From assembly GCA_037127585.1 (NCBI GenBank), contig JBAXYB010000002.1:3701-67700 (forward strand): a stretch of 64,000 nucleotides of DNA, in the 5' to 3' direction. Source of the DNA: Verrucomicrobiota bacterium (GTDB lineage: Bacteria; Verrucomicrobiota; Verrucomicrobiia; Palsa-1439). Numbering within the stretch: position 1 is the stretch's first letter; each line of letters starts with the position of its first letter. A model generated the notes under the pieces. It saw only the letters and a list, made by a program, of their open reading frames with translations. It was not told the DNA's origin and ran no database searches. Position numbers and translations under genes: made by a program. Of the stretch, positions 1,525 to 55,337 are shown piece by piece.

Positions 1525-1923
1525 CTACTCCCATGCGCCGGACCGGCGCGCTTGTTTCTTCGCGCCGTGCTTGGACTTGTCATCGAGCATCCGCGCTTTC
1601 GCGCGCCGACTGCGTTTGCGCTTTTGCCGGCGGATCCGTTCGCGCTCGGCAACCTCGGCGGCAACAAAACCTTTTTGTCGGCCTTCGATTTTGTCGAGCA
1701 ACAGCCGGCGCGCAAGAAACCGATTCAAACCTTGTTGCCGGGTTTCCTGACATTTGACCTGAATGCCGGTCGGACGATGGAGCAACATCACGCAGGATGA
1801 CACCTTGTTGACGTTCTGGCCGCCGTGACCACCGGAGCGGACGAAGGATTCTTCGATGTCCGCCTCCCGCACGCCGAGCGCGGCCATTCGCTGGGTGAGT
1901 TGGAGTTGTTTCTCGGGGTTCAT
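1525..1923 (-). CDS. arfB: alternative ribosome rescue factor ArfB (peptidyl-tRNA hydrolase, RF-1 domain with GGQ)
   Basis: 132-aa ORF with [12 protein letters not shown] (GGQ motif) and a basic C-terminal tail typical of ArfB/YaeJ. Confidence 0.85.
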
Positions 1924-2378
1924 CGAACGGAGATGATTTTATAATCCTGGGCGTGAAACTTGAACCGGTCGCCGACCTTCTTGCTGATGAGTTGCTGGCC
2001 GATCGGCGATTCGGGCGTGATGACGAACACGTCTTTGACTTCGATCCCCCCGGCTTTGGGACCGATGAAATACCACATCCGCTCGCCGCGCACTTCGAGT
2101 TCGACGAGGGCGGTGATGGCAATCGGCGACGCGGCGGTGAATTTTGCGAGCGTGAGCGCTTGATAAGCCGCCAACGCTTCTTCGGTCGCGGTGGCTTGCC
2201 GGGCTTGGGAACTGGCGAGGTAGGCGGTTTCGAGGCCGCGCGTGTCGTATTGGTCTTCGGCTTTGTTTTGTTCGTCCGAGGCGTCGGCGTGCATCGCGCG
2301 CGAGGCGCCGACCAACATCTCCAGCTCATCGCCGAGATGTTTGAAGACGTGTTGGAGGATGGCGTTTTTGGAAATCAT
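1920..2378 (-). CDS. GreA/GreB-family transcription elongation factor-like protein
   Basis: ORF 1920..2435. The internal Met at 2378 gives a ~152-aa product. The C-terminal [25 protein letters not shown] resembles the GreA FKBP-like domain. 4-nt overlap with rdgC upstream. Confidence 0.55.
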
Positions 2379-3445
2379 CGGCGGGTCGAGCGATCGGCGG
2401 CCCATTGGTGAATTTCTTTTTGAGCGGCGTTCCATTTTTTTGCGTCACTGCGTTCAGCCAGAAACCGGTCGAACAACTCCAAGAGTATACACCGGAACGC
2501 GTCGAGTTTGAGCAGCCGATCTTGGAAACGGGAAACGGGTTCGAGGACTTCCTTCGGCTCCGGCATCTTGAGCGACCGGAAGACGAACAGTTCGGTGTCA
2601 AACGACACCGACCACGCCTCATCGGCGCGGGCGATCAAGAGTTTGGCGCGGCGCAGTTTTTTGCCGCTGAGCAGCGCGGTCTTGGCTTCGGCGCTGACCG
2701 TCGGCAACCCTTTGCGCAATGTGATTTCGTGCGCGCCCGCGCCGGCCCGCGTGAACAGCAGCGGCCCTTCCAAAGCCACGCCGACGTCGCCAAATTCCTT
2801 GCTTTTGAAAATCCCGCCGCGCGCTTCGGAGACGAACCAGACCCACGTCAGGAAATCGAGGCCGGGCGCGTCTTCCATTTCTTCGTCCATCACCTCGGGC
2901 GAGAAACTGGTCCGCGCCCAATCCCGCACGTCCACCCGCTGGCGCTCGGCTGCCGCGGTGGCGACGCCGACCGGGATGAGTTTGATGCCGGTCGTGTTGT
3001 GAAAGTGAAAAGTGAAAACATCCGTCTGACTCTCCGACAACGCGCCGGCATACACCAAGCGGGCGCGCGCGTCGTAGACAAAGGGAATTCCTTTCAGCGT
3101 TGGCGGCATGTCCGGCAGGAGGCGGCTCAAGATTTGTTTGCGAATCTCGCTCCGGGTTTTGCGGTCGACGAACGGCTTGTTCTCCGCGCGCATGTAGGCG
3201 ACTTCTTCGAGCATGCACTCGGCGCGCAGCAACGACGTCGGCACCTTGCGTTCGGCTTTCAGCAAGACCAGGCGCAAATAGCCGGCGTAGATCGCATTGT
3301 CCTCTGTGATGGGTACGTCGAGTAAATGCCGGCCGCCAACCCAACCTTGGGCGACTTCGATGCCGATGGATTTCAACGGCGGCGCGGCGTGTTTGGCGAA
3401 CCGCTCCACCGCATCTTGCGGCAGCGGGTGCGCGAGATAAAACAT
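2375..3445 (-). CDS. rdgC: recombination-associated protein RdgC-like
   Basis: ORF 2375..3478. N-terminal region (MFYLAH ... AQGWV) and length fit the RdgC family. Start chosen at the Met corresponding to the RdgC N-terminus (3445); the longer start at 3478 is possible. Confidence 0.55.
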   Translation of the reverse strand: MFYLAHPLPQDAVERFAKHAAPPLKSIGIEVAQGWVGGRHLLDVPITEDNAIYAGYLRLVLLKAERKVPTSLLRAECMLEEVAYMRAENKPFVDRKTRSEIRKQILSRLLPDMPPTLKGIPFVYDARARLVYAGALSESQTDVFTFHFHNTTGIKLIPVGVATAAAERQRVDVRDWARTSFSPEVMDEEMEDAPGLDFLTWVWFVSEARGGIFKSKEFGDVGVALEGPLLFTRAGAGAHEITLRKGLPTVSAEAKTALLSGKKLRRAKLLIARADEAWSVSFDTELFVFRSLKMPEPKEVLEPVSRFQDRLLKLDAFRCILLELFDRFLAERSDAKKWNAAQKEIHQWAADRSTRR

Positions 3446-3547
3446 CCGGAATGCGACTGATCCTGATTCAAATGACATGCAAATTTCCTTCGGGTGAAGC
3501 GCGGCTTATACCACGAGATGCCCCGGGGACGAAAGGAAACGTGCCGG

Positions 3548-4075
3548 CTAGTCGACCGCGACGTAGACGATCCAGTTGGAGAAAATCAAGATCTGGTTGG
3601 CGCCCGCGTGGAATGGGACTTCCACCCGGTCCGCATCGGGATGATAACCGCGCAGTTCCTTGCCTTGCCACACGAGGTTGCCATTCACCCAGACCGCGAA
3701 TCCGGGCGAGCCCCCCAACTGTAAAGTCGCTTTCTTTTCGCTCGCCGCATTAACGATGGTGAGCGCGAAGGCGCCCGTCGTTGTCGAGGCCATGCCGGGG
3801 TGCGTGGGGACAACGACCTGCCCTAATGGCATGACGCCGCCGCGTTGAATCCAACATTCCTGCCACCAACTGGTCTGGGCGGCTTCCGATTCCCGGTCAA
3901 ACTTCCGCCAGCCGGCTTTGAGCAGATCCGTTTCAGCGGGAAGTTCCGGCACGGGTGGATAGGGCGTCCCGGCTTTCCAAGGTGTGGCCGGCGCGATGGA
4001 CCACTCGGTCAACATTCCCGGCTCGACGGAAACTTTCTCGATGAGCGGGGCCGAGCAACCGAGCGCATCGAGCAC
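3548..4075 (-). CDS. hypothetical protein, possibly a C-terminal fragment of a larger carbohydrate-binding protein; lies in a gene-decay region
   Basis: 175-aa ORF with protein-like composition (GAFALTIVNAASEKKATLQLGGSPGFAVWVNGNLVWQG) but no signal peptide or recognisable N-terminus. Flanked by stop-interrupted frames. Confidence 0.3.
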   Translation of the reverse strand: MLDALGCSAPLIEKVSVEPGMLTEWSIAPATPWKAGTPYPPVPELPAETDLLKAGWRKFDRESEAAQTSWWQECWIQRGGVMPLGQVVVPTHPGMASTTTGAFALTIVNAASEKKATLQLGGSPGFAVWVNGNLVWQGKELRGYHPDADRVEVPFHAGANQILIFSNWIVYVAVD

Positions 4076-9580: not shown

Positions 9581-10690
9581 TTATTGGTCGCGCGGGTCGC
9601 GGTTGAGCGACGGGAGCGGATGCGGGCGCACGAGCGTGCCGCCTTGTTCGTAGGACTCAATCGCCGCGAACGTGTATTCGAGCGTCGCCAACGCATCCCG
9701 CCCGGACGAGCGCAGGGCGTGTTTCGGCACGCGATTCGTCAGGTCTTCAAGATAGGCGTGGATGCGCGTCGGAAACGTCGCGCCGAAATCTTTGACGCCG
9801 GTATCCGTGACAACCGGGGTGGGTTGCTGGCCGAGGCCGAACGACTGGCCTGCCGCGGGGGCCGGGTAGTAGGTCAGTTTCTCGGTGACGTTCTCGATGC
9901 AGAACGTGCCTTTCGTGCCGCCGAGTTCAAAACTCCACCAACCGCCCAACCCCATAGTCGCGTCGCCGCGCGAACTAAAAAGATAGCCGATGGCGCCGCT
10001 CTGGAATTTCACGTGGACGCTGGCGATCGACACCATTAAATCCGCGGCATGCCGGCGCACGCTGGGGCGATCCATGAACGCCTGGATGTGCGTGATGTCG
10101 CCGCAGAAATGCCGGAGCAAACTGAACGGGTGCGCGAGAAACGCCTTGAGATGGGCGTAGGGGAAGCCGTCGAAATTCGGACCCGCGCCGGCTTTGTAGG
10201 TGTCTTCGCCGCCGACGAAGCCCGCCCGGTGCAGACAGTAAATCTGTTCACCGATCTTGCCGTCCGCCATCAACTGCTTCGCCTGCCGGGCCGGTTCGGT
10301 GAAAAAGTGGTTCAGGTTGCAGCCGAGGTACAAATCCTTTTCCGCGGCGAATTTCACCAAATCGCGCGCTTCCTGGATGTCATTGGAAATGGGTTTTTCC
10401 ACCAGCACATTCTTGCCGGCGGCGAGGGCAAGCATCGCGGGCGCGAAATGCCAACTGCCGTTTTCGCTGCCGCCCGTCGAAACATCGACGATGTCCAACT
10501 CGGGATGCGCGGCGAGCATGTCCTCGAGCCGGTAGTAGGCTTTGACTTTGTGCTTGGCGGCGACTTCATCCGCGCGGCTCTTGACCACATCGCAAACGGC
10601 GACAAGTTTCGCGAGCGCGTCCGTCGCATAACTCTGCGCGTGTGTCTGCCCGATGCCTTTTAATCCAACGACTCCGACGTTTAATGCCAT
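9581..10690 (-). CDS. Gfo/Idh/MocA-family oxidoreductase (paralog of 4699..5688)
   Basis: ORF 9581..10783. Start at Met32 (MALNVGVVGLKGIGQ). VEKPISNDI ... LGCNLNHFF closely parallels the 4699..5688 product. Confidence 0.85.
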   Translation of the reverse strand: MALNVGVVGLKGIGQTHAQSYATDALAKLVAVCDVVKSRADEVAAKHKVKAYYRLEDMLAAHPELDIVDVSTGGSENGSWHFAPAMLALAAGKNVLVEKPISNDIQEARDLVKFAAEKDLYLGCNLNHFFTEPARQAKQLMADGKIGEQIYCLHRAGFVGGEDTYKAGAGPNFDGFPYAHLKAFLAHPFSLLRHFCGDITHIQAFMDRPSVRRHAADLMVSIASVHVKFQSGAIGYLFSSRGDATMGLGGWWSFELGGTKGTFCIENVTEKLTYYPAPAAGQSFGLGQQPTPVVTDTGVKDFGATFPTRIHAYLEDLTNRVPKHALRSSGRDALATLEYTFAAIESYEQGGTLVRPHPLPSLNRDPRDQ

Positions 10691-33263: not shown

Positions 33264-34436
33264 ATGACTGCCCGGCAAATCGCTCTTGAACTTCTCGACG
33301 CCTGGCCGCGCGCGCGCCAGTTCGCCGACGAGCTGCTCGACGAACGGGCGAAACTACCGGCGCAAGACCGCGCTTTCGTGCAGGAACTCTTCTACGGCTG
33401 TCTCCGGCACCGGCTCGAGCTCGATTATCTAATCGAGTCCGTCGCCGGCAAGAAACCGCGCCCGGTCGTGGCCAATCTGCTCCATCTCGGCCTCTACCAA
33501 CTTCACTACCAGAAGACCGCCCCGCACGCTGCCGTGCATGAAACCGTCGAACTCGCGAAACAGCACGTCAGCCCGGCCGAAGTGCGCTTCATCAATGCCG
33601 TGCTCCGCCGGACCGACCCGGCCGCGCTGGAACGCGCCGAACCGTGGGTGCGGCTGTCGCATCCGCGCTGGTTGTATGACCGGCACGGTGCCGCGTGGTG
33701 CGAATGGAACAATCAACCGCCCTCCATATATATACGGATCAATACGCTCCGAACCGGCGGCACAACCTCGCCTCTAGCGGCTGAGCCGACCGCTCATCCG
33801 TTGGCGTGGCGCGTTACTGACTCAGCCGGCATGTTTAGCTCACCGGCCTGGAAGAATGGCGAGTTCTATGTGCAAGATCCGTCCACGTTGCTTGCGGTAG
33901 ATGCGCTTGACCCGCAACCGGGCGAGGCCATTCTTGATATGTGCGCCGCGCCGGGCGGTAAGACCACCTACATCGCCGCAAAAATGCAGAACCGCGGCCA
34001 GATCATCGCCGCCGATTCGTCGAATGTCCGGCTGGGTTTGGTGACGGAGAATTGCCGGCGGCTTGGGATTACCATCGTCGCGACCTTGGCCTGCGCGAAT
34101 GGCCGGTGTCTGCGCGGCCGGCAATTCGATCGGGTGCTCGTTGATGCGCCGTGCTCAAATACCGGCGTCATGCGGCGGCGGGTGGACTTACGGTGGCGGC
34201 TCCAACCGGCGGAAATCACCCGGTTGGCCGCGATCCAGAAAAAGTTGCTCACGGATGCCGGTCAGTTTGTGAAGCCGGGCGGGGTGCTTGTCTACAGCAC
34301 GTGCAGTGTCGAGGCGCAGGAAAACGAGCAGGTGGTCACGCAGCTACCGGGGTTTGTGATCGAAGCCCAGCGCGCCGTGGTGCCGCCGCGCGATCAGATG
34401 GACGGCGCGTTTATCTGTAAATTGCGCGCGCCGTAA
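33264..34436 (+). CDS. rsmB: 16S rRNA (cytosine967-C5)-methyltransferase RsmB/Sun
   Basis: ATG at 33264 within long ORF 32169..34436. NusB-like N-terminal domain and SAM-MTase core with catalytic DAPCSNTG and TCS motifs. Confidence 0.85.
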   Translation: MTARQIALELLDAWPRARQFADELLDERAKLPAQDRAFVQELFYGCLRHRLELDYLIESVAGKKPRPVVANLLHLGLYQLHYQKTAPHAAVHETVELAKQHVSPAEVRFINAVLRRTDPAALERAEPWVRLSHPRWLYDRHGAAWCEWNNQPPSIYIRINTLRTGGTTSPLAAEPTAHPLAWRVTDSAGMFSSPAWKNGEFYVQDPSTLLAVDALDPQPGEAILDMCAAPGGKTTYIAAKMQNRGQIIAADSSNVRLGLVTENCRRLGITIVATLACANGRCLRGRQFDRVLVDAPCSNTGVMRRRVDLRWRLQPAEITRLAAIQKKLLTDAGQFVKPGGVLVYSTCSVEAQENEQVVTQLPGFVIEAQRAVVPPRDQMDGAFICKLRAP

Positions 34437-34503
34437 TGTGGGAGCGGCCTCAGTGCCGCGACCGACAACTCAACATCTGTCGCGGCGCTGAGGCCGCTCC
34501 CAC
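34437..34503. repeat. palindromic REP/MITE-like element, family 2 (TGTGGGAGCGGCC ... GGCCGCTCCCAC), copy 1
   Basis: ~23-nt arms that are near-perfect reverse complements around a 20-nt loop, between convergent rsmB and the LTXXQ gene. Shares termini with the copies at 46230 and 54406. Confidence 0.7.
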
Positions 34504-34568
34504 GTTCTTAAAATAGAACGGCTCTCGTCCGTTGCCGAACGAGAGCCGCCTGGAAGGATCAACGTCAA

Positions 34569-35060
34569 TTACTCAGCGGGAGCAGGCTTCGGAGACTTCT
34601 TTTCGCCCTGATCGCCGCGCGGGCCTTTGCCCATGCGTTCGCGAATTTCTGCCAGTCCCTTGTCGAGGGTGGCTTTCTGCTCGTCCGTGAGCGAGGCGCG
34701 AAGCTGTTCGACGTAGCCCTTGCGGGTATCCATCAACGGCTTGCGTTGTTCCAACAGCTTTTTAATCGCGTCTTTATCCTTGGCGGCATGGGCTTTTTGC
34801 ATCTCTTCTTTGAAGCCCGGGTGCGTCTTGTCCCACGCGTCCGCGTCTTTCTTGAACGCGGTTTCGAGGCCGTCGTATTTTGTCTTCTGATCGGCGGTGA
34901 GCTTCAGGTCATCGAGGATGGGGGGAGGCAACAGATGCTCCATCATCTTCGCGGCGCCGCGGTGGATATCGCCTTTGGCGGGGGCCTTGTCGTCCGCATA
35001 CGCGTACGACGTGACCAAGCCAATGATGGCTAGGGCGGTGAGTGCTTTCAGTAACTTCAT
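34569..35060 (-). CDS. periplasmic LTXXQ-motif protein (CpxP/Spy-like)
   Basis: ORF 34569..35171. Start at Met38 gives a signal peptide. Two LTxxQ motifs (LTADQKTKY, LTDEQKATL). Confidence 0.6.
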   Translation of the reverse strand: MKLLKALTALAIIGLVTSYAYADDKAPAKGDIHRGAAKMMEHLLPPPILDDLKLTADQKTKYDGLETAFKKDADAWDKTHPGFKEEMQKAHAAKDKDAIKKLLEQRKPLMDTRKGYVEQLRASLTDEQKATLDKGLAEIRERMGKGPRGDQGEKKSPKPAPAE

Positions 35061-35533
35061 GGGTTCTCCTTTTGGGGGTTCTCGGTTTTGGTTTCTCGGT
35101 TCTCGGCTGGCGGCGGCTTGTGACCACGCGGCGGGAACGGGGGTTCTTCGCCGGGATGTTCCTGCCGCCACTTATCTTCAAATTCTTTGCGCTGTTGCCG
35201 GAATTGTTCCCGGGCTTTCTCGCGTTGCTCGGGTGACATTTTTTTCCACCGGTCGCCATTCTCTTTCAAGCGCTGCCGCTCTTCCGGAGTCATCTCCACA
35301 AACCGTTTGATGCGTTCATGAATGAATTGCCGTTCCTCCGGCGGCATCTGATTGAGTGCGCTGTGTAACCGGAGAACTTGCATCTTCGCTTCTGGCGGCA
35401 ACTTGCTCCAGTTCTCGTTGGCGCGTTGCTCCATCTGCGCCTTCTGTTCGTCAGTTAATGGCTGCCGGTCGCGCGGCGGCTCTTGCGCCGCGGCGCCAAC
35501 TGCTATCAGCAATGCGAGCACGAGCCATTTCAT
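35057..35533 (-). CDS. periplasmic DUF3106-like protein (charged, QR/EER-rich repeats)
   Basis: ORF 35057..35725. Start at Met65 gives a signal peptide. Repeated PPEERQ/PEERQRL/PEQREKAREQFRQQ segments. Confidence 0.5.
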   Translation of the reverse strand: MKWLVLALLIAVGAAAQEPPRDRQPLTDEQKAQMEQRANENWSKLPPEAKMQVLRLHSALNQMPPEERQFIHERIKRFVEMTPEERQRLKENGDRWKKMSPEQREKAREQFRQQRKEFEDKWRQEHPGEEPPFPPRGHKPPPAENRETKTENPQKENP

Positions 35534-37902: not shown

Positions 37903-37962
37903 GCGCTGTGCAGAAGCGCAGCTACAACGGCTCTTGGTGTAGCGGCGCTTCTGTGAAGCGCC
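37903..37962. repeat. palindromic element family 1: two hairpin units (GCGCTGTGCAGAAGCGC-AGCTACAAC and GTGTAGC-GGCGCTTCTGTGAAGCGCC) facing each other
   Basis: Read from the sequence; related to the units at 45611-45686 and 55311-55337. Lies 12 nt upstream of the exonuclease start and just downstream of the 37971 gene stop. Confidence 0.65.
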
Positions 37963-44784: not shown

Positions 44785-45270
44785 ATGAAGAGGCAAAATC
44801 CAATCAACCCGTTTGACCTCCTTGCGTTGGTCCTTGCCGGTGCGATGATTGAATGCCGAAGCCGGCCAGCGTGGGCGGTATTGATCGCGGTGTCCGCGCT
44901 AGCGGTCGGGCTGGGCACGTTCAGCTTCGCGACGGCCATCACGCAATTTGGCGGATTGTCCGGTATCGCCTGCGCGGCCATTGGATACATAGCACTACTA
45001 TGTATCAGGCAATCCGGCGCTGGCCGGTACGTGATGCTGGGCGCGCTGCTCCTGCTGGCCGGCAAGATCCTCTGGGAATGCGCCACTCACCGCGCACTCT
45101 TTGTCGCCAGCGATAGCCGGTTAGTCGTCTTCCCACTCGCCCATGCCATTGGGCTGGCCAGTGCATTTGGGCTTTGGCTTGGGACCAGCACTTTTCAACA
45201 ACGTCGGCGCATCCATCAAACCGAAAGGCGCGATCGTTCCGTGGCAACGACCGTCACAGTTATCCCATGA
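44785..45270 (+). CDS. small polytopic membrane protein, rhomboid-like (GxSG and AHxxG motifs), rhombosortase-like candidate
   Basis: ORF 44773..45270. FGGLSGIACAAIGY and PLAHAIGLASAFGL resemble rhomboid TM4 Ser and TM6 His motifs. Short (~161 aa). Confidence 0.4.
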   Translation: MKRQNPINPFDLLALVLAGAMIECRSRPAWAVLIAVSALAVGLGTFSFATAITQFGGLSGIACAAIGYIALLCIRQSGAGRYVMLGALLLLAGKILWECATHRALFVASDSRLVVFPLAHAIGLASAFGLWLGTSTFQQRRRIHQTERRDRSVATTVTVIP

Positions 45271-45695
45271 ACGCGACCCCGGTAACACTGAACTGGTTTG
45301 TCGGCTGGTGGTTGATCCTGGCCGGCTTTGCCAGTGGTGCGGTGATTGGATTGTTCTTTCACCAGGAAAAATTTCTCGGCGGGTACGGCTCGTTTCGGCG
45401 GCGGCTGTTGCGGCTGGGCCACATCGCGTGCGCAGCGTTGGGGATGTTGAACTTGATAGTCGCCGTGGCGCCGGTGATGTCGCCGTTGCTGGCGGTTGGC
45501 GGGGTCTTGATGCCGACGGTTTGTTTTCTGACGGCGTGGAAGGCGCAATGCCGGCACTTGTTTGCGATACCGGTGCTGGCGTTGGTGGCAGGAGTGGTGG
45601 TGGTGATGTGGTGTAGTGGCGCTTCTGTGAAGCGCCCCGTCGTGGCGGGACAACTGCCCGCGCTTCACAGAAGCGCGGCTACAACCGGAGATTGA
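45267..45695 (+). CDS. small membrane protein (4 TM); C-terminal ~30 aa encoded by a palindromic repeat element
   Basis: ORF 45174..45695. Start at Met32. The C-terminus VVVVMWCSGASVKRPVVAGQLPALHRSAATTGD is the translation of the family-1 repeat. Confidence 0.4.
   Translation: MNATPVTLNWFVGWWLILAGFASGAVIGLFFHQEKFLGGYGSFRRRLLRLGHIACAALGMLNLIVAVAPVMSPLLAVGGVLMPTVCFLTAWKAQCRHLFAIPVLALVAGVVVVMWCSGASVKRPVVAGQLPALHRSAATTGD
45611..45686. repeat. palindromic element family 1: GTGTAGT-GGCGCTTCTGTGAAGCGCC ... CGCGCTTCACAGAAGCGC-GGCTACAACC (two hairpin units in opposite orientation, 22-nt spacer)
   Basis: The two 17-nt cores are perfect reverse complements and are each self-complementary (GCGCTTC-TGT-GAAGCGC). 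Confidence 0.7.
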
Positions 45696-45697
45696 CG

Positions 45698-47119
45698 ATG
45701 AAAATTGGTTTTTTGGCGATGAGCGGGATCCGGGCGCATGACCCGGAATTGTTGAAACTCGGATTGACGTTGCCGGGGTTTGTCGAGCGCAGCAAGGCGA
45801 TTGCGTCGCTGCCAAGTCTGGGGTTGCTCTATCTCGCGGCGGTGACGCCGGCCGGACACGAACTCGAATACTTCGAGGCCGAGGCGGACGGGAAGGAGTC
45901 GGTCGCGCTGTACGATTGCGATCTCGTGGCGATCAGCACGTTCTCGGCGCAGGTGTTCGAAGCGTACGCGATTGCGGATCGGCTCCGGCTGGCCGGCGTG
46001 AAGGTGGCGTTGGGCGGGTTGCATGTGACGGCGTTGCCGGCCGAGGCGTTCGCGCACGCGGACTATGTGGTGACCGGCGAAGGCGAGAACGTGTGGCCGG
46101 AAGTTGTGCGATCCGCGGAACGTGACGCGCCGCCGCGGACGTTCGCAGCGCAAATGTATCCGGCGGTCGATGTGACGCGCTTGCCGGTGCCGCGCTATGA
46201 TTTGTTGGGCGTCCGAACAGGAGAATCGATGTGGGAGCGGCGTCATTCCCCTCAGCCGGTTGCGGCGGGGACGCCGCTCCCACAACAACCGCCCGCTATC
46301 CGGTACAACCGGTTCACAGTGCAAACGACGCGCGGGTGTCCGTGGCGGTGCGAGTTCTGCGCGTCGAACGTCATGCTCGGCCAGCCGTACCGGAAGCGGC
46401 CGGTGTGGGACGTGGTCCGCGACATCGGCACGATCCAGCAAGTGCGCGAACGTCCATTCATCGAGTTTGCCGATGACAATACGTTCGTCGATAAAACGTG
46501 GGGCAAGCAGTTGTGCCGGGCGCTCGCGCCGCTGCACTTGAAATGGTTTACCGAGACCGACATCTCGGTGGCTGAGGATGGGGAGTTGCTCGAGCTGATG
46601 CACGCGGCGGGTTGCCGGCAGATTCTGATTGGGCTGGAGAGTCCGAACGCGTCGCCGTTGCATGGACTGGAGATGAAGGCGGATTTCAAGGCGCGGTGGT
46701 TTACCCGCTACGCCAACGCCATCGAACGCATCCAGTCGCACGGCATCACGGTGAATGGTTGTTTCATCCTCGGCCTCGATGGTCACGACACCGGTATCTT
46801 CGAGCAGGTGCTCGACTTTGCCCGGCAAGTGTCGCTCTACGACGTGCAGATCACGGTGCTGACGGCGTTTCCCGGTACGCCGCTGTATGCACGACTGCTC
46901 CGGGAAGGCCGCGTGATCGAGCCGGGCCGGTGGGATTTGTGCACGCTCTTTGACGTGAATTACCGGCCGGTCGGGATGAGTGCGGACGAACTGCGCGCCG
47001 GCATGCGGTGGTTGACGGAGCGACTTTACAACGACGAATGCACGCAAGCACGGAGGGCGGGATTTTTATCTTCCTTTCGGCGGGCGACGGGAACAGAATT
47101 ACAGACGAAAGCCGCATGA
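45698..47119 (+). CDS. B12-binding domain radical SAM protein (class B rSAM)
   Basis: ORF 45692..47119 (TTG). ATG at 45698 gives MKIGFLAMSG. N-terminal cobalamin-binding domain, CPWRCEFC (CxxxCxxC) cluster motif. Carries a ~19-aa in-frame insertion derived from a palindromic element. Confidence 0.85.
   Translation: MKIGFLAMSGIRAHDPELLKLGLTLPGFVERSKAIASLPSLGLLYLAAVTPAGHELEYFEAEADGKESVALYDCDLVAISTFSAQVFEAYAIADRLRLAGVKVALGGLHVTALPAEAFAHADYVVTGEGENVWPEVVRSAERDAPPRTFAAQMYPAVDVTRLPVPRYDLLGVRTGESMWERRHSPQPVAAGTPLPQQPPAIRYNRFTVQTTRGCPWRCEFCASNVMLGQPYRKRPVWDVVRDIGTIQQVRERPFIEFADDNTFVDKTWGKQLCRALAPLHLKWFTETDISVAEDGELLELMHAAGCRQILIGLESPNASPLHGLEMKADFKARWFTRYANAIERIQSHGITVNGCFILGLDGHDTGIFEQVLDFARQVSLYDVQITVLTAFPGTPLYARLLREGRVIEPGRWDLCTLFDVNYRPVGMSADELRAGMRWLTERLYNDECTQARRAGFLSSFRRATGTELQTKAA
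46230..46284. repeat. palindromic element family 2 copy 2 (TGTGGGAGCGGCGTC ... GACGCCGCTCCCACA), located in frame inside the rSAM CDS
   Basis: 15-nt perfectly complementary arms plus a 26-nt loop. Translated as MWERRHSPQPVAAGTPLPQQ between the rSAM YDLL and TTRGCPWRCEFC motifs. Confidence 0.7.
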
Positions 47120-48402
47120 AGCCTTCCAAACAAATCCAATGGTTGTACGAGGAACTTCCCAAACTCACCCAAGCCGGAGTGGTACCGGCGGAGGTGGCGG
47201 AGAAACTCCGGCAACATTACGGCGCCGCCGAGTGTGGCGGGCGCCGGTGGGCCATTGTGTTGTTCGGCATTTTGGGCGGGGCGCTCATCGGGGCCGGAAT
47301 CATTTTGTTGCTGGCGCATAACTGGGATGAGTTGTCGCGGCCGGTGCGGGCGGTGATTTCGTTTCTGCCATTGGTGATTGCGGTGGCGTTGGCGGCGTTC
47401 GTGATTTGGAAGCGGGCCGGGAGCACGGCGTGGAGCGAGAGCGTCGGGATATTTTGGGCGTTGGCAATCGGCGCGACGATTTCGCTGGTGGCGCAGACGT
47501 ATCATATCAGCGGGGATTTCCCGGCGTTCATCCTGACGTGGTCGCTGGCCGGGTTGCCGATTGTGTATCTGTTGAACTGTAGTTCGGCGGCGCTGTTGTT
47601 TTGGGTTGGCGCAACGGTGTGGGCGGGACACGCGTGCTGGAATCGCGACGAGGCGATGTGGTTCTGGCCGTTGGCGGCGTTGGCGGTACCGCATCTGTGG
47701 CTAGTGGCTCGAACAAACCGGTACCGGCCGAGGGTGGCGATGCTGATCTGGGGGCTGGCCGGGTGCGCGGCGTTTGGGATTGGGTTTGGCCTGACGCACC
47801 GGATCGAACACGCTTGGATCCCGGTCTTCACAAGTTATTTTGCGGTGTTGTACATGATCGGCAGCCGGTGGTTCGATGAGGGGCGCACTTTCTGGCAGCG
47901 GCCTCTCCAAACTATCGGGGCGTTGGGCGTCATCGCGCTCGGGGTGGCGCTGACGTTTGGGGATGCGTGGCGCGGCACGTTCCGGCAGGGGGACTGGCCG
48001 GGTCTTTTTCAGTCGCCCTTGGTGGTGTTGCCTGTGGCGGCGGTGGTGTTGTGGGTTTACACGTGGACCCGGCAGGATCCGGTGGCGTTGCTTTTCGGTG
48101 GGTTACCGGTGGTGGGGATGATTGGGACCGCACTGGCGGCCGGGCACGCTGGGGTGGTGGTGCTGGTGTTAATGAACGTGTACGTGTTGGGATTAGGCGT
48201 GGCGCTGATTACGTTGGGGGTGCGCGATCAGCGGTTGGGCGTGGTGAATCTGGGGATGCTGGTGACGTCGGTGCTCATCATCGCGCGGTTCTTCGACAGC
48301 GACATGGGGTTTGTGCTGCGCGGACTGGCGTTCATCGCGGTGGGGATCGGTTTCTTGGTGACGAATGTGATGCTGATTCGACGGAAGGGAGGCGCTCAAT
48401 GA
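47116..48402 (+). CDS. DUF2157-like polytopic membrane protein (soluble N-terminal domain plus ~10 TM)
   Basis: ORF 47008..48402. Start at the Met giving MKPSKQIQWLYEEL (47116), overlapping the rSAM stop by 4 nt. Confidence 0.5.
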   Translation: MKPSKQIQWLYEELPKLTQAGVVPAEVAEKLRQHYGAAECGGRRWAIVLFGILGGALIGAGIILLLAHNWDELSRPVRAVISFLPLVIAVALAAFVIWKRAGSTAWSESVGIFWALAIGATISLVAQTYHISGDFPAFILTWSLAGLPIVYLLNCSSAALLFWVGATVWAGHACWNRDEAMWFWPLAALAVPHLWLVARTNRYRPRVAMLIWGLAGCAAFGIGFGLTHRIEHAWIPVFTSYFAVLYMIGSRWFDEGRTFWQRPLQTIGALGVIALGVALTFGDAWRGTFRQGDWPGLFQSPLVVLPVAAVVLWVYTWTRQDPVALLFGGLPVVGMIGTALAAGHAGVVVLVLMNVYVLGLGVALITLGVRDQRLGVVNLGMLVTSVLIIARFFDSDMGFVLRGLAFIAVGIGFLVTNVMLIRRKGGAQ

Positions 48403-54234: not shown

Positions 54235-54311
54235 TGGTGCGGCCGGCGGGAGTCGAACCCACAACCTTTGCCTTCGGAGGGCAACGCTCTATCCAGTTGA
54301 GCTACGGCCGC
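54235..54311 (-). tRNA. tRNA-Arg (anticodon CCG), 77 nt, with encoded CCA
   Basis: Minus-strand sequence GCGGCCGTAGCTCAACTGGATAGAGCGTTGCCCTCCGAAGGCAAAGGTTGTGGGTTCGACTCCCGCCGGCCGCACCA folds as a cloverleaf (7-bp acceptor, D, anticodon stem TTGCC/GGCAA with loop CTCCGAA, T-arm GTGGG/CCCGC). Confidence 0.9.
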
Positions 54312-54405: not shown

Positions 54406-54477
54406 TGTGGGAGCGCCCTTCCGGGCGCGATTTGCTCGAATGACCAACCCGGTCGCGCCCGGAAGGGCGCTCCCACA
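54406..54477. repeat. palindromic element family 2 copy 3 (TGTGGGAGCGCCCTTCCGGGCGCGA ... TCGCGCCCGGAAGGGCGCTCCCACA)
   Basis: 25-nt perfectly complementary arms and a 22-nt loop, between tRNA-Arg and rph. Confidence 0.7.
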
Positions 54478-54578: not shown

Positions 54579-55301
54579 ATGAAACGTTTTGATGGTCGCT
54601 TGGTGGATCAACTGCGGACACTGAAAATCCAGCCGAATTATCTCGCCACGCCGGCCGGCTCGGTGCTCATCGAAATGGGGAAGACACGCGTCATCTGCGC
54701 CGCGTCGATCGAGGACGGGGTGCCGCGGTGGATGAAGGAACAGAAGGTCGTCGGCGGGTGGGTGACGGCGGAGTATTCGATGTTGCCCTATTCGACTTCG
54801 CCCCGGAAATCCCGGGAAGTCGCCAAGGGCAAGGTCGAGGGGCGGACGCAGGAGATTCAGCGGCTCATCGGCCGGTCCATACGGGCGGTGACGGATATGA
54901 CGAAGCTCGGGGAGCGAACGGTGTGGGTCGATTGCGATGTGCTCGAAGCCGATGGCGGGACGCGGACGGCGTCGATTACCGGGGCGTATGTGGCGATGCA
55001 GTTGGCGATGCAGAAGTTGATGGCGCTGAGTTTGGTGAAGGAGAATCCGGTCACGGCGGCGGTGGCGGCGGTGAGCGTGGGAGTGATCGAGGGGACGCCG
55101 TTGTTGGATTTGAATTATGTCGAGGACGTGGCGGCGGCGGTGGACATGAATGTGGTGATGACGGATGCCGGGCGGTTTGTGGAGGTGCAGGGGACGGGCG
55201 AGGAGTCAACGTTCAGCCGGGAGGAGTTGAACGAATTGCTCCGGTTGGGCGAGCGCGGGATTCAGGAGTTGCTCGCGGCGCAGCAGCAGGCGCTGAAGTA
55301 A
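54579..55301 (+). CDS. rph: ribonuclease PH
   Basis: ORF 54543..55301. Start at MKRFDGR. RNase PH conserved motifs ([17 protein letters not shown] ... [18 protein letters not shown]). Confidence 0.9.
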
Positions 55302-55310
55302 AAACACCAT

Positions 55311-55337
55311 CGCGGCTCACAGAGCCGCGGCTACACC
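55311..55337. repeat. palindromic element family 1, single unit (CGCGGCTC-ACA-GAGCCGCG-GCTACACC); possible bidirectional terminator between convergent rph and trxA
   Basis: Same architecture as CGCGCTTC-ACA-GAAGCGCG-GCTACAACC at 45659-45686, with compensatory stem substitutions. On the minus strand the hairpin is followed by ATGGTGTTTTT. Confidence 0.55.

Follow-up and report, generated by a model that had tools for sequence, protein, structure and literature searches.

The window analyzed here, a stretch of 64,000 nucleotides from a Verrucomicrobiota bacterium (GenBank assembly GCA_037127585.1, contig JBAXYB010000002.1, positions 3,701 to 67,700 of the forward strand), contains three palindromes of 55–72 bp that share their ends and differ in their cores. 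These elements raise the question of whether they are copies of a mobile repeat, and of which kind, or hairpins that serve a function in place. Repetitive extragenic palindromes (REPs) form a well-known class of short mobile hairpin repeats, presumed to be mobilized by a REP-associated tyrosine transposase (RAYT). The three elements are very probably dimers of GTAG-type REPs, i.e., REP doublets forming hairpins (REPINs), which represent subtypes of a single superfamily and would owe their spread to a RAYT.

Structure of the Palindromic Elements

Palindromes are present at all three sites (positions 34437–34504, 46230–46284 and 54406–54477 of the window, hereafter copies 1, 2 and 3), and the ends GTGGGAGCG...CGCTCCCAC are common to all of them. 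The 9-mer GTGGGAGCG occurs six times on both strands of the window, exclusively at the six arm ends, compared to 0.9 occurrences expected from dinucleotide shuffles, where 0 of 100 reached six. The exact 9-mer was taken as the proper enrichment test in place of a search for the 10-mer terminus with one mismatch allowed, which was uninformative (7 matches versus 5.9 expected, not significant). The preliminary description of this DNA had recognized three palindromes with shared ends, and they are real by this test. The core sequences that it listed are correct, as is its placement of the copies at the rsmB terminator position, inside a coding sequence (CDS) and near tRNA/rph. Its coordinates are exact for copies 2 and 3; copy 1 is one base longer, ending at 34504 and not at 34503.

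Copy 1 begins right after the rsmB stop codon, within a convergent intergenic gap. Copy 2 lies in frame within CDS 45698–47119, and copy 3 is situated between a tRNA-Arg gene (54235–54311, minus strand) and rph (54543, plus strand). Perfect complementarity had been ascribed to each copy, which is strictly the case for copy 3, with 25 nt arms that are 100% complementary. The 31 nt arms of copy 1 are 90% complementary, with two T/G mismatches, one internal and one terminal; the right end of this copy is CGCTCCCACG (...CCCACG), not ...ACA. In copy 2, pairing is perfect over 15 nt and then continues with a bulge. Each element folds far better than its own shuffles (z from −5.9 to −12.3, with 0 of 200 shuffles equal), and the predicted stability of the hairpins is −42 to −64 kcal/mol.

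Each palindrome consists of two REP units, inverted and placed tail to tail so that the heads lie outermost, an arrangement typical of REPINs (Table 1). The REP unit is about 26 nt long and comprises an unpaired (T)GTGG head, the dinucleotide GA, a stem-loop-stem and a GAN tail. The stem is GC-rich and 5–6 bp long, starts with GCG and ends with CGC, and the loop is 4–6 nt long. All six arms start with GTGG, preceded by T in five arms and by C in one, and GA follows GTGG in every arm. The stem and loop lengths apply to five of the six arms, the exception being the decayed left arm of copy 2. The tails in the window are GAC or GAT, except that the right arm of copy 2 ends in AAC. Every intact arm of the window follows the formula TGT[GA]G, two nucleotides, a perfect stem-loop and a tail. 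The dimer ends read TGTGGGAGCG...CGCTCCCACA, and the 10 nt terminus noted earlier corresponds to the head, GA and the first three stem bases.

The spacer within a pair is 16–22 nt long; counted between the 26 nt units, it measures 16 nt in copy 1 and 20 nt in copy 3, and copy 2 has the same inverted-dimer layout with one arm decayed. The right unit of copy 1 differs from the left one at two positions, giving two G-T pairs in the long hairpin. The long palindrome arises from two units of the same subtype in inverted orientation and not from compensatory change within a copy. No target-site duplication was found at any of the copies, the flanks being GCCGTAA/TTCTTAA, GAATCGA/ACAACCG and CTGTTAC/ACTGGCC, respectively.

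Distribution and Covariation of the REP Unit

A scan of species-representative genomes for the pattern GTGGGAGCG-NH…DN-CGCTCCCAC, built to skip the commonest Pseudomonas subtypes, returned at least 120 loci. The loci listed come from many phyla and include Xanthomonadales, Methylococcales, Chromatiales, Burkholderiales, deltaproteobacterial metagenome-assembled genomes (MAGs) and one cyanobacterium; two of the matches listed are from Verrucomicrobia (L068, Opitutaceae, and L088, Verrucomicrobiia). A few are chance matches without a hairpin, including those in Streptomyces (L023), Microbacterium (L063) and Polyangiaceae (L065). In 232 of the 260 arms from the 120 listed loci (89%), a perfect local hairpin directly follows GTGGGA, and 97% of these hairpin-forming arms carry the GAN tail. 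The arms are diverse, with 30 distinct stems and 86 stem-plus-loop types. Seven matches to the pattern were found in viral contigs.

Covariation was tested on arms picked solely by their fixed flanks (GTGGGAGCG-N10-CGCGA), comprising 20 distinct sequences. The three variable stem pairs were 99.2% paired, with 25 double changes compared to 6.4 in shuffles (0 of 500 as high), and pairing dropped to 19–52% when the partner column was slid. The true compensatory signal resides in the local stem of the REP unit. Both arms fold in 110 dimers, the arms being identical in 61 and unlike in 49; because of the latter, the short local hairpin and not the long one is the conserved feature. Hence, the idea that compensatory evolution maintains a hairpin is right for the local REP stem and does not extend to the long hairpin, to which it had been applied. 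Taken together, the loci suggest that a single design of head and tail is found in many phyla, with a stem free to covary.

The units of the window recur elsewhere. The copy 3 unit GTGGGAGCGCCCTTCCGGGCGCGA was found, identical, in contigs L080, L136 and L261, the intact copy 2 unit GTGGGAGCGGCGTCCCCGCCGCGA in L088, L136 and L159; L068 contains a unit similar to that of copy 1. Two of the subtypes were also matched in a metagenome scan, in which the matches listed are a lower bound. Across the genome and metagenome scans, identical units occur singly at many unrelated loci and in many phyla. Because these units recur in other genomes, the three variable cores are not private to each copy; they are three subtypes of one REP superfamily. 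Beside the elements, no insertion target is conserved outside the head beyond T at position −1 (77%) and a pyrimidine (Y) at position −2 (80%).

A different repeat was seen in the IMG/VR viral contig L004 (5372–5440), where GTGGGAGCGATTYAAAAACACT is present three times in tandem; it is unrelated to the REP architecture.

Association with RAYT Transposases

REP units of the same subtypes as those in the window accompany single transposase genes in other contigs. Contig L261 encodes a 203 aa Y1 transposase (P0245, 10001–10612), flanked by two units identical to copy 3 with heads outward (9983–10004, plus strand, and 10578–10599, minus strand). A third REP unit lies in frame inside the P0245 gene (10268–10296). 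The REP sequence TGTGGGAGCGCCCTTCCGGGCGCGAC would be a candidate substrate of this enzyme. The RAYT of contig L159 scored 103 bits against a hidden Markov model (HMM) of RayT-named proteins, and its gene is flanked and interrupted by copy-2-type units. In L085, L040 and L045 (Methylobacter, Crenothrix), some 30 nt separate the gene for a 161 aa RAYT from a GTGGGAGCG dimer. This protein matches the Pfam family Y1_Tnp (1.9e-15), and its relatives are named “REP element-mobilizing transposase RayT”. When the RAYTs were aligned with named RayT proteins, the HUH histidines and the catalytic tyrosine region were invariant. All-against-all clustering of the open reading frames (ORFs) from the 120 listed loci gave, beyond the RAYT cluster, nothing except housekeeping or spurious GC-rich frames.

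These associations point to a mechanism in which a RAYT encoded by the genome, being an IS200-type tyrosine transposase (HUH/Y1), would recognize the folded REP hairpin with its 5′ tag on single-stranded DNA. The enzyme would cut beside the tag and move or copy a unit or a dimer, leaving no target-site duplication. Copies would survive where they are harmless, i.e., between genes, at the ends of genes and in protein linkers that tolerate an insertion. The genome studied here probably encodes a RAYT of its own, which may have moved the copies in the window.

In several RAYT genes, a REP unit is present in frame at one shared position immediately behind the HUH motif (L261, 10268–10296; L159, 3204–3227; proteins P0241 and P0243), and the C-termini of these RAYTs are also REP-encoded. 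Contig L159 additionally contains a bioF-like aminotransferase gene with an in-frame REP dimer (2189–2261). Its frame runs without a stop through another REP into the RAYT frame, forming one ORF of 649 codons (1686–3635); in L260, which has the same gene order, the bioF-like and RAYT genes are called separately. A further Y1 protein match (L222, 327 aa) appears to belong to a different IS200-type family and was not used.

Insertion into the B12-Binding Radical SAM Gene

Copy 2 resides in a gene for a B12-binding radical SAM protein. Its presence there is not an assembly artefact, since the identical protein is found in an NCBI Verrucomicrobiota MAG, in an ENA metagenome assembly and in a Logan assembly. 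The insert in this gene, about 84 nt or 28 codons long, includes the 55 nt of copy 2 with about 17 nt extra on the left and about 12 nt extra on the right. According to Pfam, it is located between the B12-binding domain (aa 38–136) and the radical SAM core (aa 209–375). The AlphaFold (AF2) confidence score, pLDDT (predicted local distance difference test), is below 50 for residues 173–200, as expected of a loose loop.

In 110 of the 120 best homologs, a four-residue linker (GDRP) between …PRYDLL and YNRFTVQTTRGCP represents the empty site, compared to 32 residues in the protein of the window. The closest homologs, with 83–85% identity, have the empty site, and the two closest empty-site relatives contain no REP units in the 15–21 kb examined. 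Precise loss of an insert would be expected to leave the linker sequence GGCGACCGGCC(A/G). Inserts at the same linker were found in six further homologs, and all four checked at the DNA level contain REPs (L132, L134, L135 and L136; Table 1). Gain or loss has therefore taken place at a defined site, which is filled in the window and in these four contigs and empty in the 110 homologs. Copy 2 is a surviving in-frame insertion in an interdomain linker, the left arm of which has decayed since.

The junctions of the inserts vary between lineages by a few to about 25 nt. As the junctions differ and only T at −1 and Y at −2 are conserved, survival at a permissive site is favored over a sequence-specific target. 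We consider it rather unlikely that the 12 nt linker, filled at least four or five separate times by single or dimeric REPs that differ in subtype and even in family, reveals with these recurrences, and with the fixed in-frame REP site in RAYT genes, a real target preference of RAYT and not mere survival. The short palindrome AACCGGTT immediately downstream of the linker could serve as an insertion cue. To our knowledge, the choice of insertion sites by REPs is still poorly understood, and such a preference, if true, would make this linker a natural read-out of it.

The surroundings of the gene also differ between relatives. Downstream of the radical SAM gene, L130 (11335–16700) and L134 (11395–18296) contain two more B12-binding radical SAM genes, two genes without a Pfam match and a GH3-like gene. 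A DUF2157 gene follows this extra gene set in L130 and comes directly after the radical SAM gene in the window (47119–47200), so that the difference is one of gene-cluster presence.

Alternative Explanations

The palindromes might instead be functional RNA hairpins selected in place, i.e., terminators, stabilizers of mRNA 3′ ends or RNase targets, the shared ends being recognized by a protein or an RNase and having nothing to do with mobility. The great stability of the hairpins fits this explanation, as do the position of copy 1, which adjoins the stop codon of rsmB in a convergent gap, and that of the single REP at 55312–55334 between convergent genes. On the sense strand of rsmB, both mismatches of copy 1 become G-U pairs, and Di Nocera et al. 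(PMC3733652) infer RNA action of many REPs from G-T pairing and position. However, no T-run, read by eye, follows any of the three palindromes on either strand, and a terminator scan of 34300–34700 did not report copy 1, its sole match being a separate hairpin at 34517–34550 on the minus strand. Copy 3 lies in a divergent gap, upstream of both its neighbors, and copy 2 is within a CDS. The same units flank transposase genes, and related genes have filled and empty alleles. Nor does any Rfam family cover the elements: tRNA alone passes the gathering thresholds, and a permissive search gave chance matches to miRNA-hairpin models (28–35 bits versus thresholds of 67–90). On this evidence, selection in place is an improbable origin of the three palindromes. 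A secondary RNA role of individual copies is possible and compatible with RAYT-mobilized REPs.

Inverted ends, a length of 55–72 bp, several copies and a copy within a gene would also be expected of miniature inverted-repeat transposable elements (MITEs), i.e., internally deleted insertion sequences with 10 bp terminal inverted repeats that are moved by a DDE transposase. However, the elements are at or below the 70–300 bp range of MITEs given in PMC3733652, direct target-site duplications flank none of the three copies, and outside the head the conservation of sequence ends after 1–2 nt. A covarying hairpin is present in each arm individually, units often occur singly or in mixed dimers, and the transposase found beside identical units is of the HUH/Y1 and not of the DDE type, which makes a MITE origin very improbable. 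Conserved ends around a variable palindromic center superficially resemble recombination sites of another system as well, e.g., the attC sites of integrons, or the ends might be shared by chance. Chance is contradicted by the enrichment of the 9-mer (6 versus 0.9). The attC core has the consensus RYYYAAC/GTTRRRY, which the ends do not resemble; the gene lists of the window contain neither an integrase nor a cassette array, and identical units are scattered singly over many unrelated loci and phyla. Both possibilities are scarcely credible. Of the classes named in the preliminary description (REP, MITE, Rickettsia palindromic elements (RPE) or structured RNA), the assignment to REPs stands, and the others are not supported, for want of a target-site duplication, because of a different tag and for want of an Rfam family, respectively.

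Some observations weigh against dimeric REPs mobilized by a RAYT. A RAYT or an IS200-like gene, which it had been advised to look for, is absent from the 64 kb window and about 9 kb on each side (window, L001, L137 and L139, searched with an HMM from 113 RayT-like proteins), and PF01797 does not appear in the Pfam lists of the called genes in the window and flanks; in L261 and L159, identical units flank a RAYT. The 64 kb contain only 11 REP units, only six of which are of the main family. Three of the six REP sites in the window overlap or touch coding sequence, more than the term “extragenic” implies. Finally, the radical SAM gene has gained 84 nt, of which the palindrome makes up 55 nt, which implies a larger moved segment or a later change of the linker.

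Other REP Elements in the Genome

Besides the six units of the TGTGG family, the window contains five units of a second REP family, TGTAG-NN-GCGCTTC-TGT-GAAGCGC, arranged in two dimers and a single unit (Table 1), and two more REP units lie in about 18 kb of flanks. The single unit has a fully compensated stem variant, GCGGCTC/GAGCCGC. Identical units of the second family are present in the related contigs L132 and L135.

One of the second-family dimers provides the last ~28 codons (…CSGASVKRPVVAGQLPALHRSAATTGD) of CDS 45267–45695, which encodes a small membrane protein just upstream of the radical SAM gene. Among the homologs of this protein, the same REP-encoded tail is found in L135, unrelated tails in L130, L131 and L134, and no tail in L136. 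A third REP type, TGTAGCC-GAAGC-GTGA-GCTTC-GG, forms an inverted dimer in L139 (18900–18960), a contig of this genome, at a site some 7 kb upstream of where the window starts.

In the ENA assembly of this organism there is a break at ~55241–55295, where NODE_244 ends and NODE_514 starts with a 55 nt overlap. Only about 17 nt separate the break from the second-family single REP, as would be expected if a repeat or a strain variant had disrupted the assembly. Near copy 1, the hairpin at 34517–34550 (minus strand) with its T-run resembles an intrinsic terminator of the convergent gene 34569–35171 (minus strand) and is distinct from the REP dimer.

Table 1. Positions and composition of REP units, dimers and linker inserts in the window and in related contigs.
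Feature	Contig	Position	Strand	Composition or basis
Copy 1, left REP unit	Window	34437–34462	+	T-GTGG-GA, stem GCGGC, loop CTCAGT, stem GCCGC, tail GAC; local hairpin scan
Copy 1, spacer	Window	34463–34478		16 nt between REP tails
Copy 1, right REP unit	Window	34479–34504	-	CGTGGGA GCGGC CTCAGC GCCGC GAC on minus strand
Copy 2, left REP unit, decayed	Window	46230–46258	+	Head TGTGGGAGCGGCGTC intact, then ATT insertion and substitutions; compared with intact GTGGGAGCGGCGTCCCCGCCGCGA
Copy 2, right REP unit, nearly intact	Window	46259–46284	-	TGTGGGA GCGGCG TCCC CGCCGC AAC on minus strand
Copy 3, left REP unit	Window	54406–54431	+	TGTGGGA GCGCCC TTCC GGGCGC GAT
Copy 3, spacer	Window	54432–54451		20 nt
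Copy 3, right REP unit	Window	54452–54477	-	TGTGGGA GCGCCC TTCC GGGCGC GAC on minus strand
B12-binding radical SAM CDS hosting copy 2	Window	45698–47119	+	Identical protein in ENA, Logan and NCBI records; Pfam domains
Insert in radical SAM gene, ~84 nt (28 codons)	Window	46213–46296	+	Protein alignment, filled/empty-site DNA, DNA alignment
Second-family (TGTAG) dimer, heads inward	Window	37903–37961		…CAGCTACA / TGTAGCGGCGCTTCTGTGAAGCGC; between two minus-strand genes
Second-family (TGTAG) dimer, heads outward	Window	45612–45683		TGTAGTGGCGCTTCTGTGAAGCGC … GCGCTTCACAGAAGCGCGGCTACA; codes C-terminal tail of CDS 45267–45695
Second-family single REP	Window	55312–55334	-	TGTAGCC GCGGCTC TGT GAGCCGC GAT; between convergent rph and thioredoxin genes
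Linker insert	L132	776–922		Mixed dimer GCGGCC-TTCC / GCGGGC-TTCT
Linker insert	L136	948–1031		Single copy-3-type unit
Linker insert	L135	916–1083		Dimer of second (TGTAG) family
Linker insert	L134	10472–10591		Single unit of another type, GTGGGACAAGC-TTCCA-GCTTG

Significance

The value of these findings lies mostly in annotation. They make sense of unusual peptide inserts (…WERRHSPQPVAAGTPLPQ…) and unusual C-termini of predicted proteins, and they account for palindromes at gene ends that can be mistaken for terminators or small RNAs. They may also account for a contig break beside one of the units in another assembly of this genome. The TGTGGGAGCG…CGCGA type of REP, best described in Pseudomonas, is extended to uncultured Verrucomicrobiota. 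The repeated filling of the radical SAM linker is a small example of mobile hairpins adding disordered segments to enzymes.

Comparison with Known Systems

The GTAG superfamily of REPs was described by Di Nocera, De Gregorio and Rocco (2013, PMC3733652). Its members have stems of 5–13 bp and loops of 2–20 nt and include GTGG as a variant of the tag; tens to thousands of copies per genome are a feature of the class. The GTAG-1/2 architecture has two extra bases (GW) after the tag, a 3 bp tail, complementary stem changes between subfamilies, G-T pairs, and inverted dimers in which the two arms may be alike or unlike. The units studied here resemble it in the GT[AG]G head, the following GA, the GC-rich stem of 5–6 bp, the short loop and the GAN tail, and also in the stem changes, the two sorts of dimers and the G-T pairs.

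The superfamily includes the Pseudomonas REP classes TGTGGGAGCGGGCxTGCCCGCGAA (Nunvar 2010, PMC2817692; Nunvar 2013, PMC3686654), and REPs of the classes TGTGGGAGCGGGC.TGCCCGCGAA have RAYT partners in Pseudomonas putida (PMC2817692) and P. fluorescens (PMC3686654). In the units studied here, the initial ten bases TGTGGGAGCG and the CGCGA(A/T) at the close are literally those of the P. putida and P. fluorescens classes. In contrast to the latter, the host is an uncultured Verrucomicrobiota MAG, and the subtypes GCGCCC-TTCC, GCGGC-CTCAGT and GCGGCG-TCCC are not among the Pseudomonas and Stenotrophomonas classes given in the article text.

The term REPIN denotes the two-REP unit of Bertels and Rainey (2011, PMC3116915). 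As in the REPIN-RAYT system, two inverted REPs with a short spacer form one long hairpin, a lone Y1 transposase gene has identical units on its flanks (L261, L159 and L085), and a dimer of the TGTAG family is kept at the same gene position in two lineages. Unlike that system, the 64 kb contain several subtypes side by side, together with a second REP family.

The nearest precedent by phylum is Opitutus terrae (Verrucomicrobia), a genome highly enriched in REPs, with GTGG heads (GTAG-20) and the most intragenic copies, about 70 (PMC3733652). Its REP singles and dimers (GTAG-17 to GTAG-20) lie in frame in many genes and encode ~7–30 residues, the dimers 20–30 (PMC3733652). The likeness consists of the same phylum, the GTGG heads and the in-frame intragenic REPs; the peptides of O. 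terrae (VAGVADPG.., GTGVPPV and VGPALAAG), however, derive from other stems, and the radical SAM gene is not listed there. RPE likewise are palindromes in frame in genes that stay open. They differ in the tag and in the unit sequence: RPE-4 and RPE-6 belong to the CGTC-tagged superfamily and have no link to a transposase gene, and RPE-1 is longer. Every feature reported here, including the in-frame copy, has a published precedent (Nunvar 2010; Di Nocera 2013). The new elements are the lineage of the host, the stem subtypes particular to it and a linker that has been filled repeatedly.

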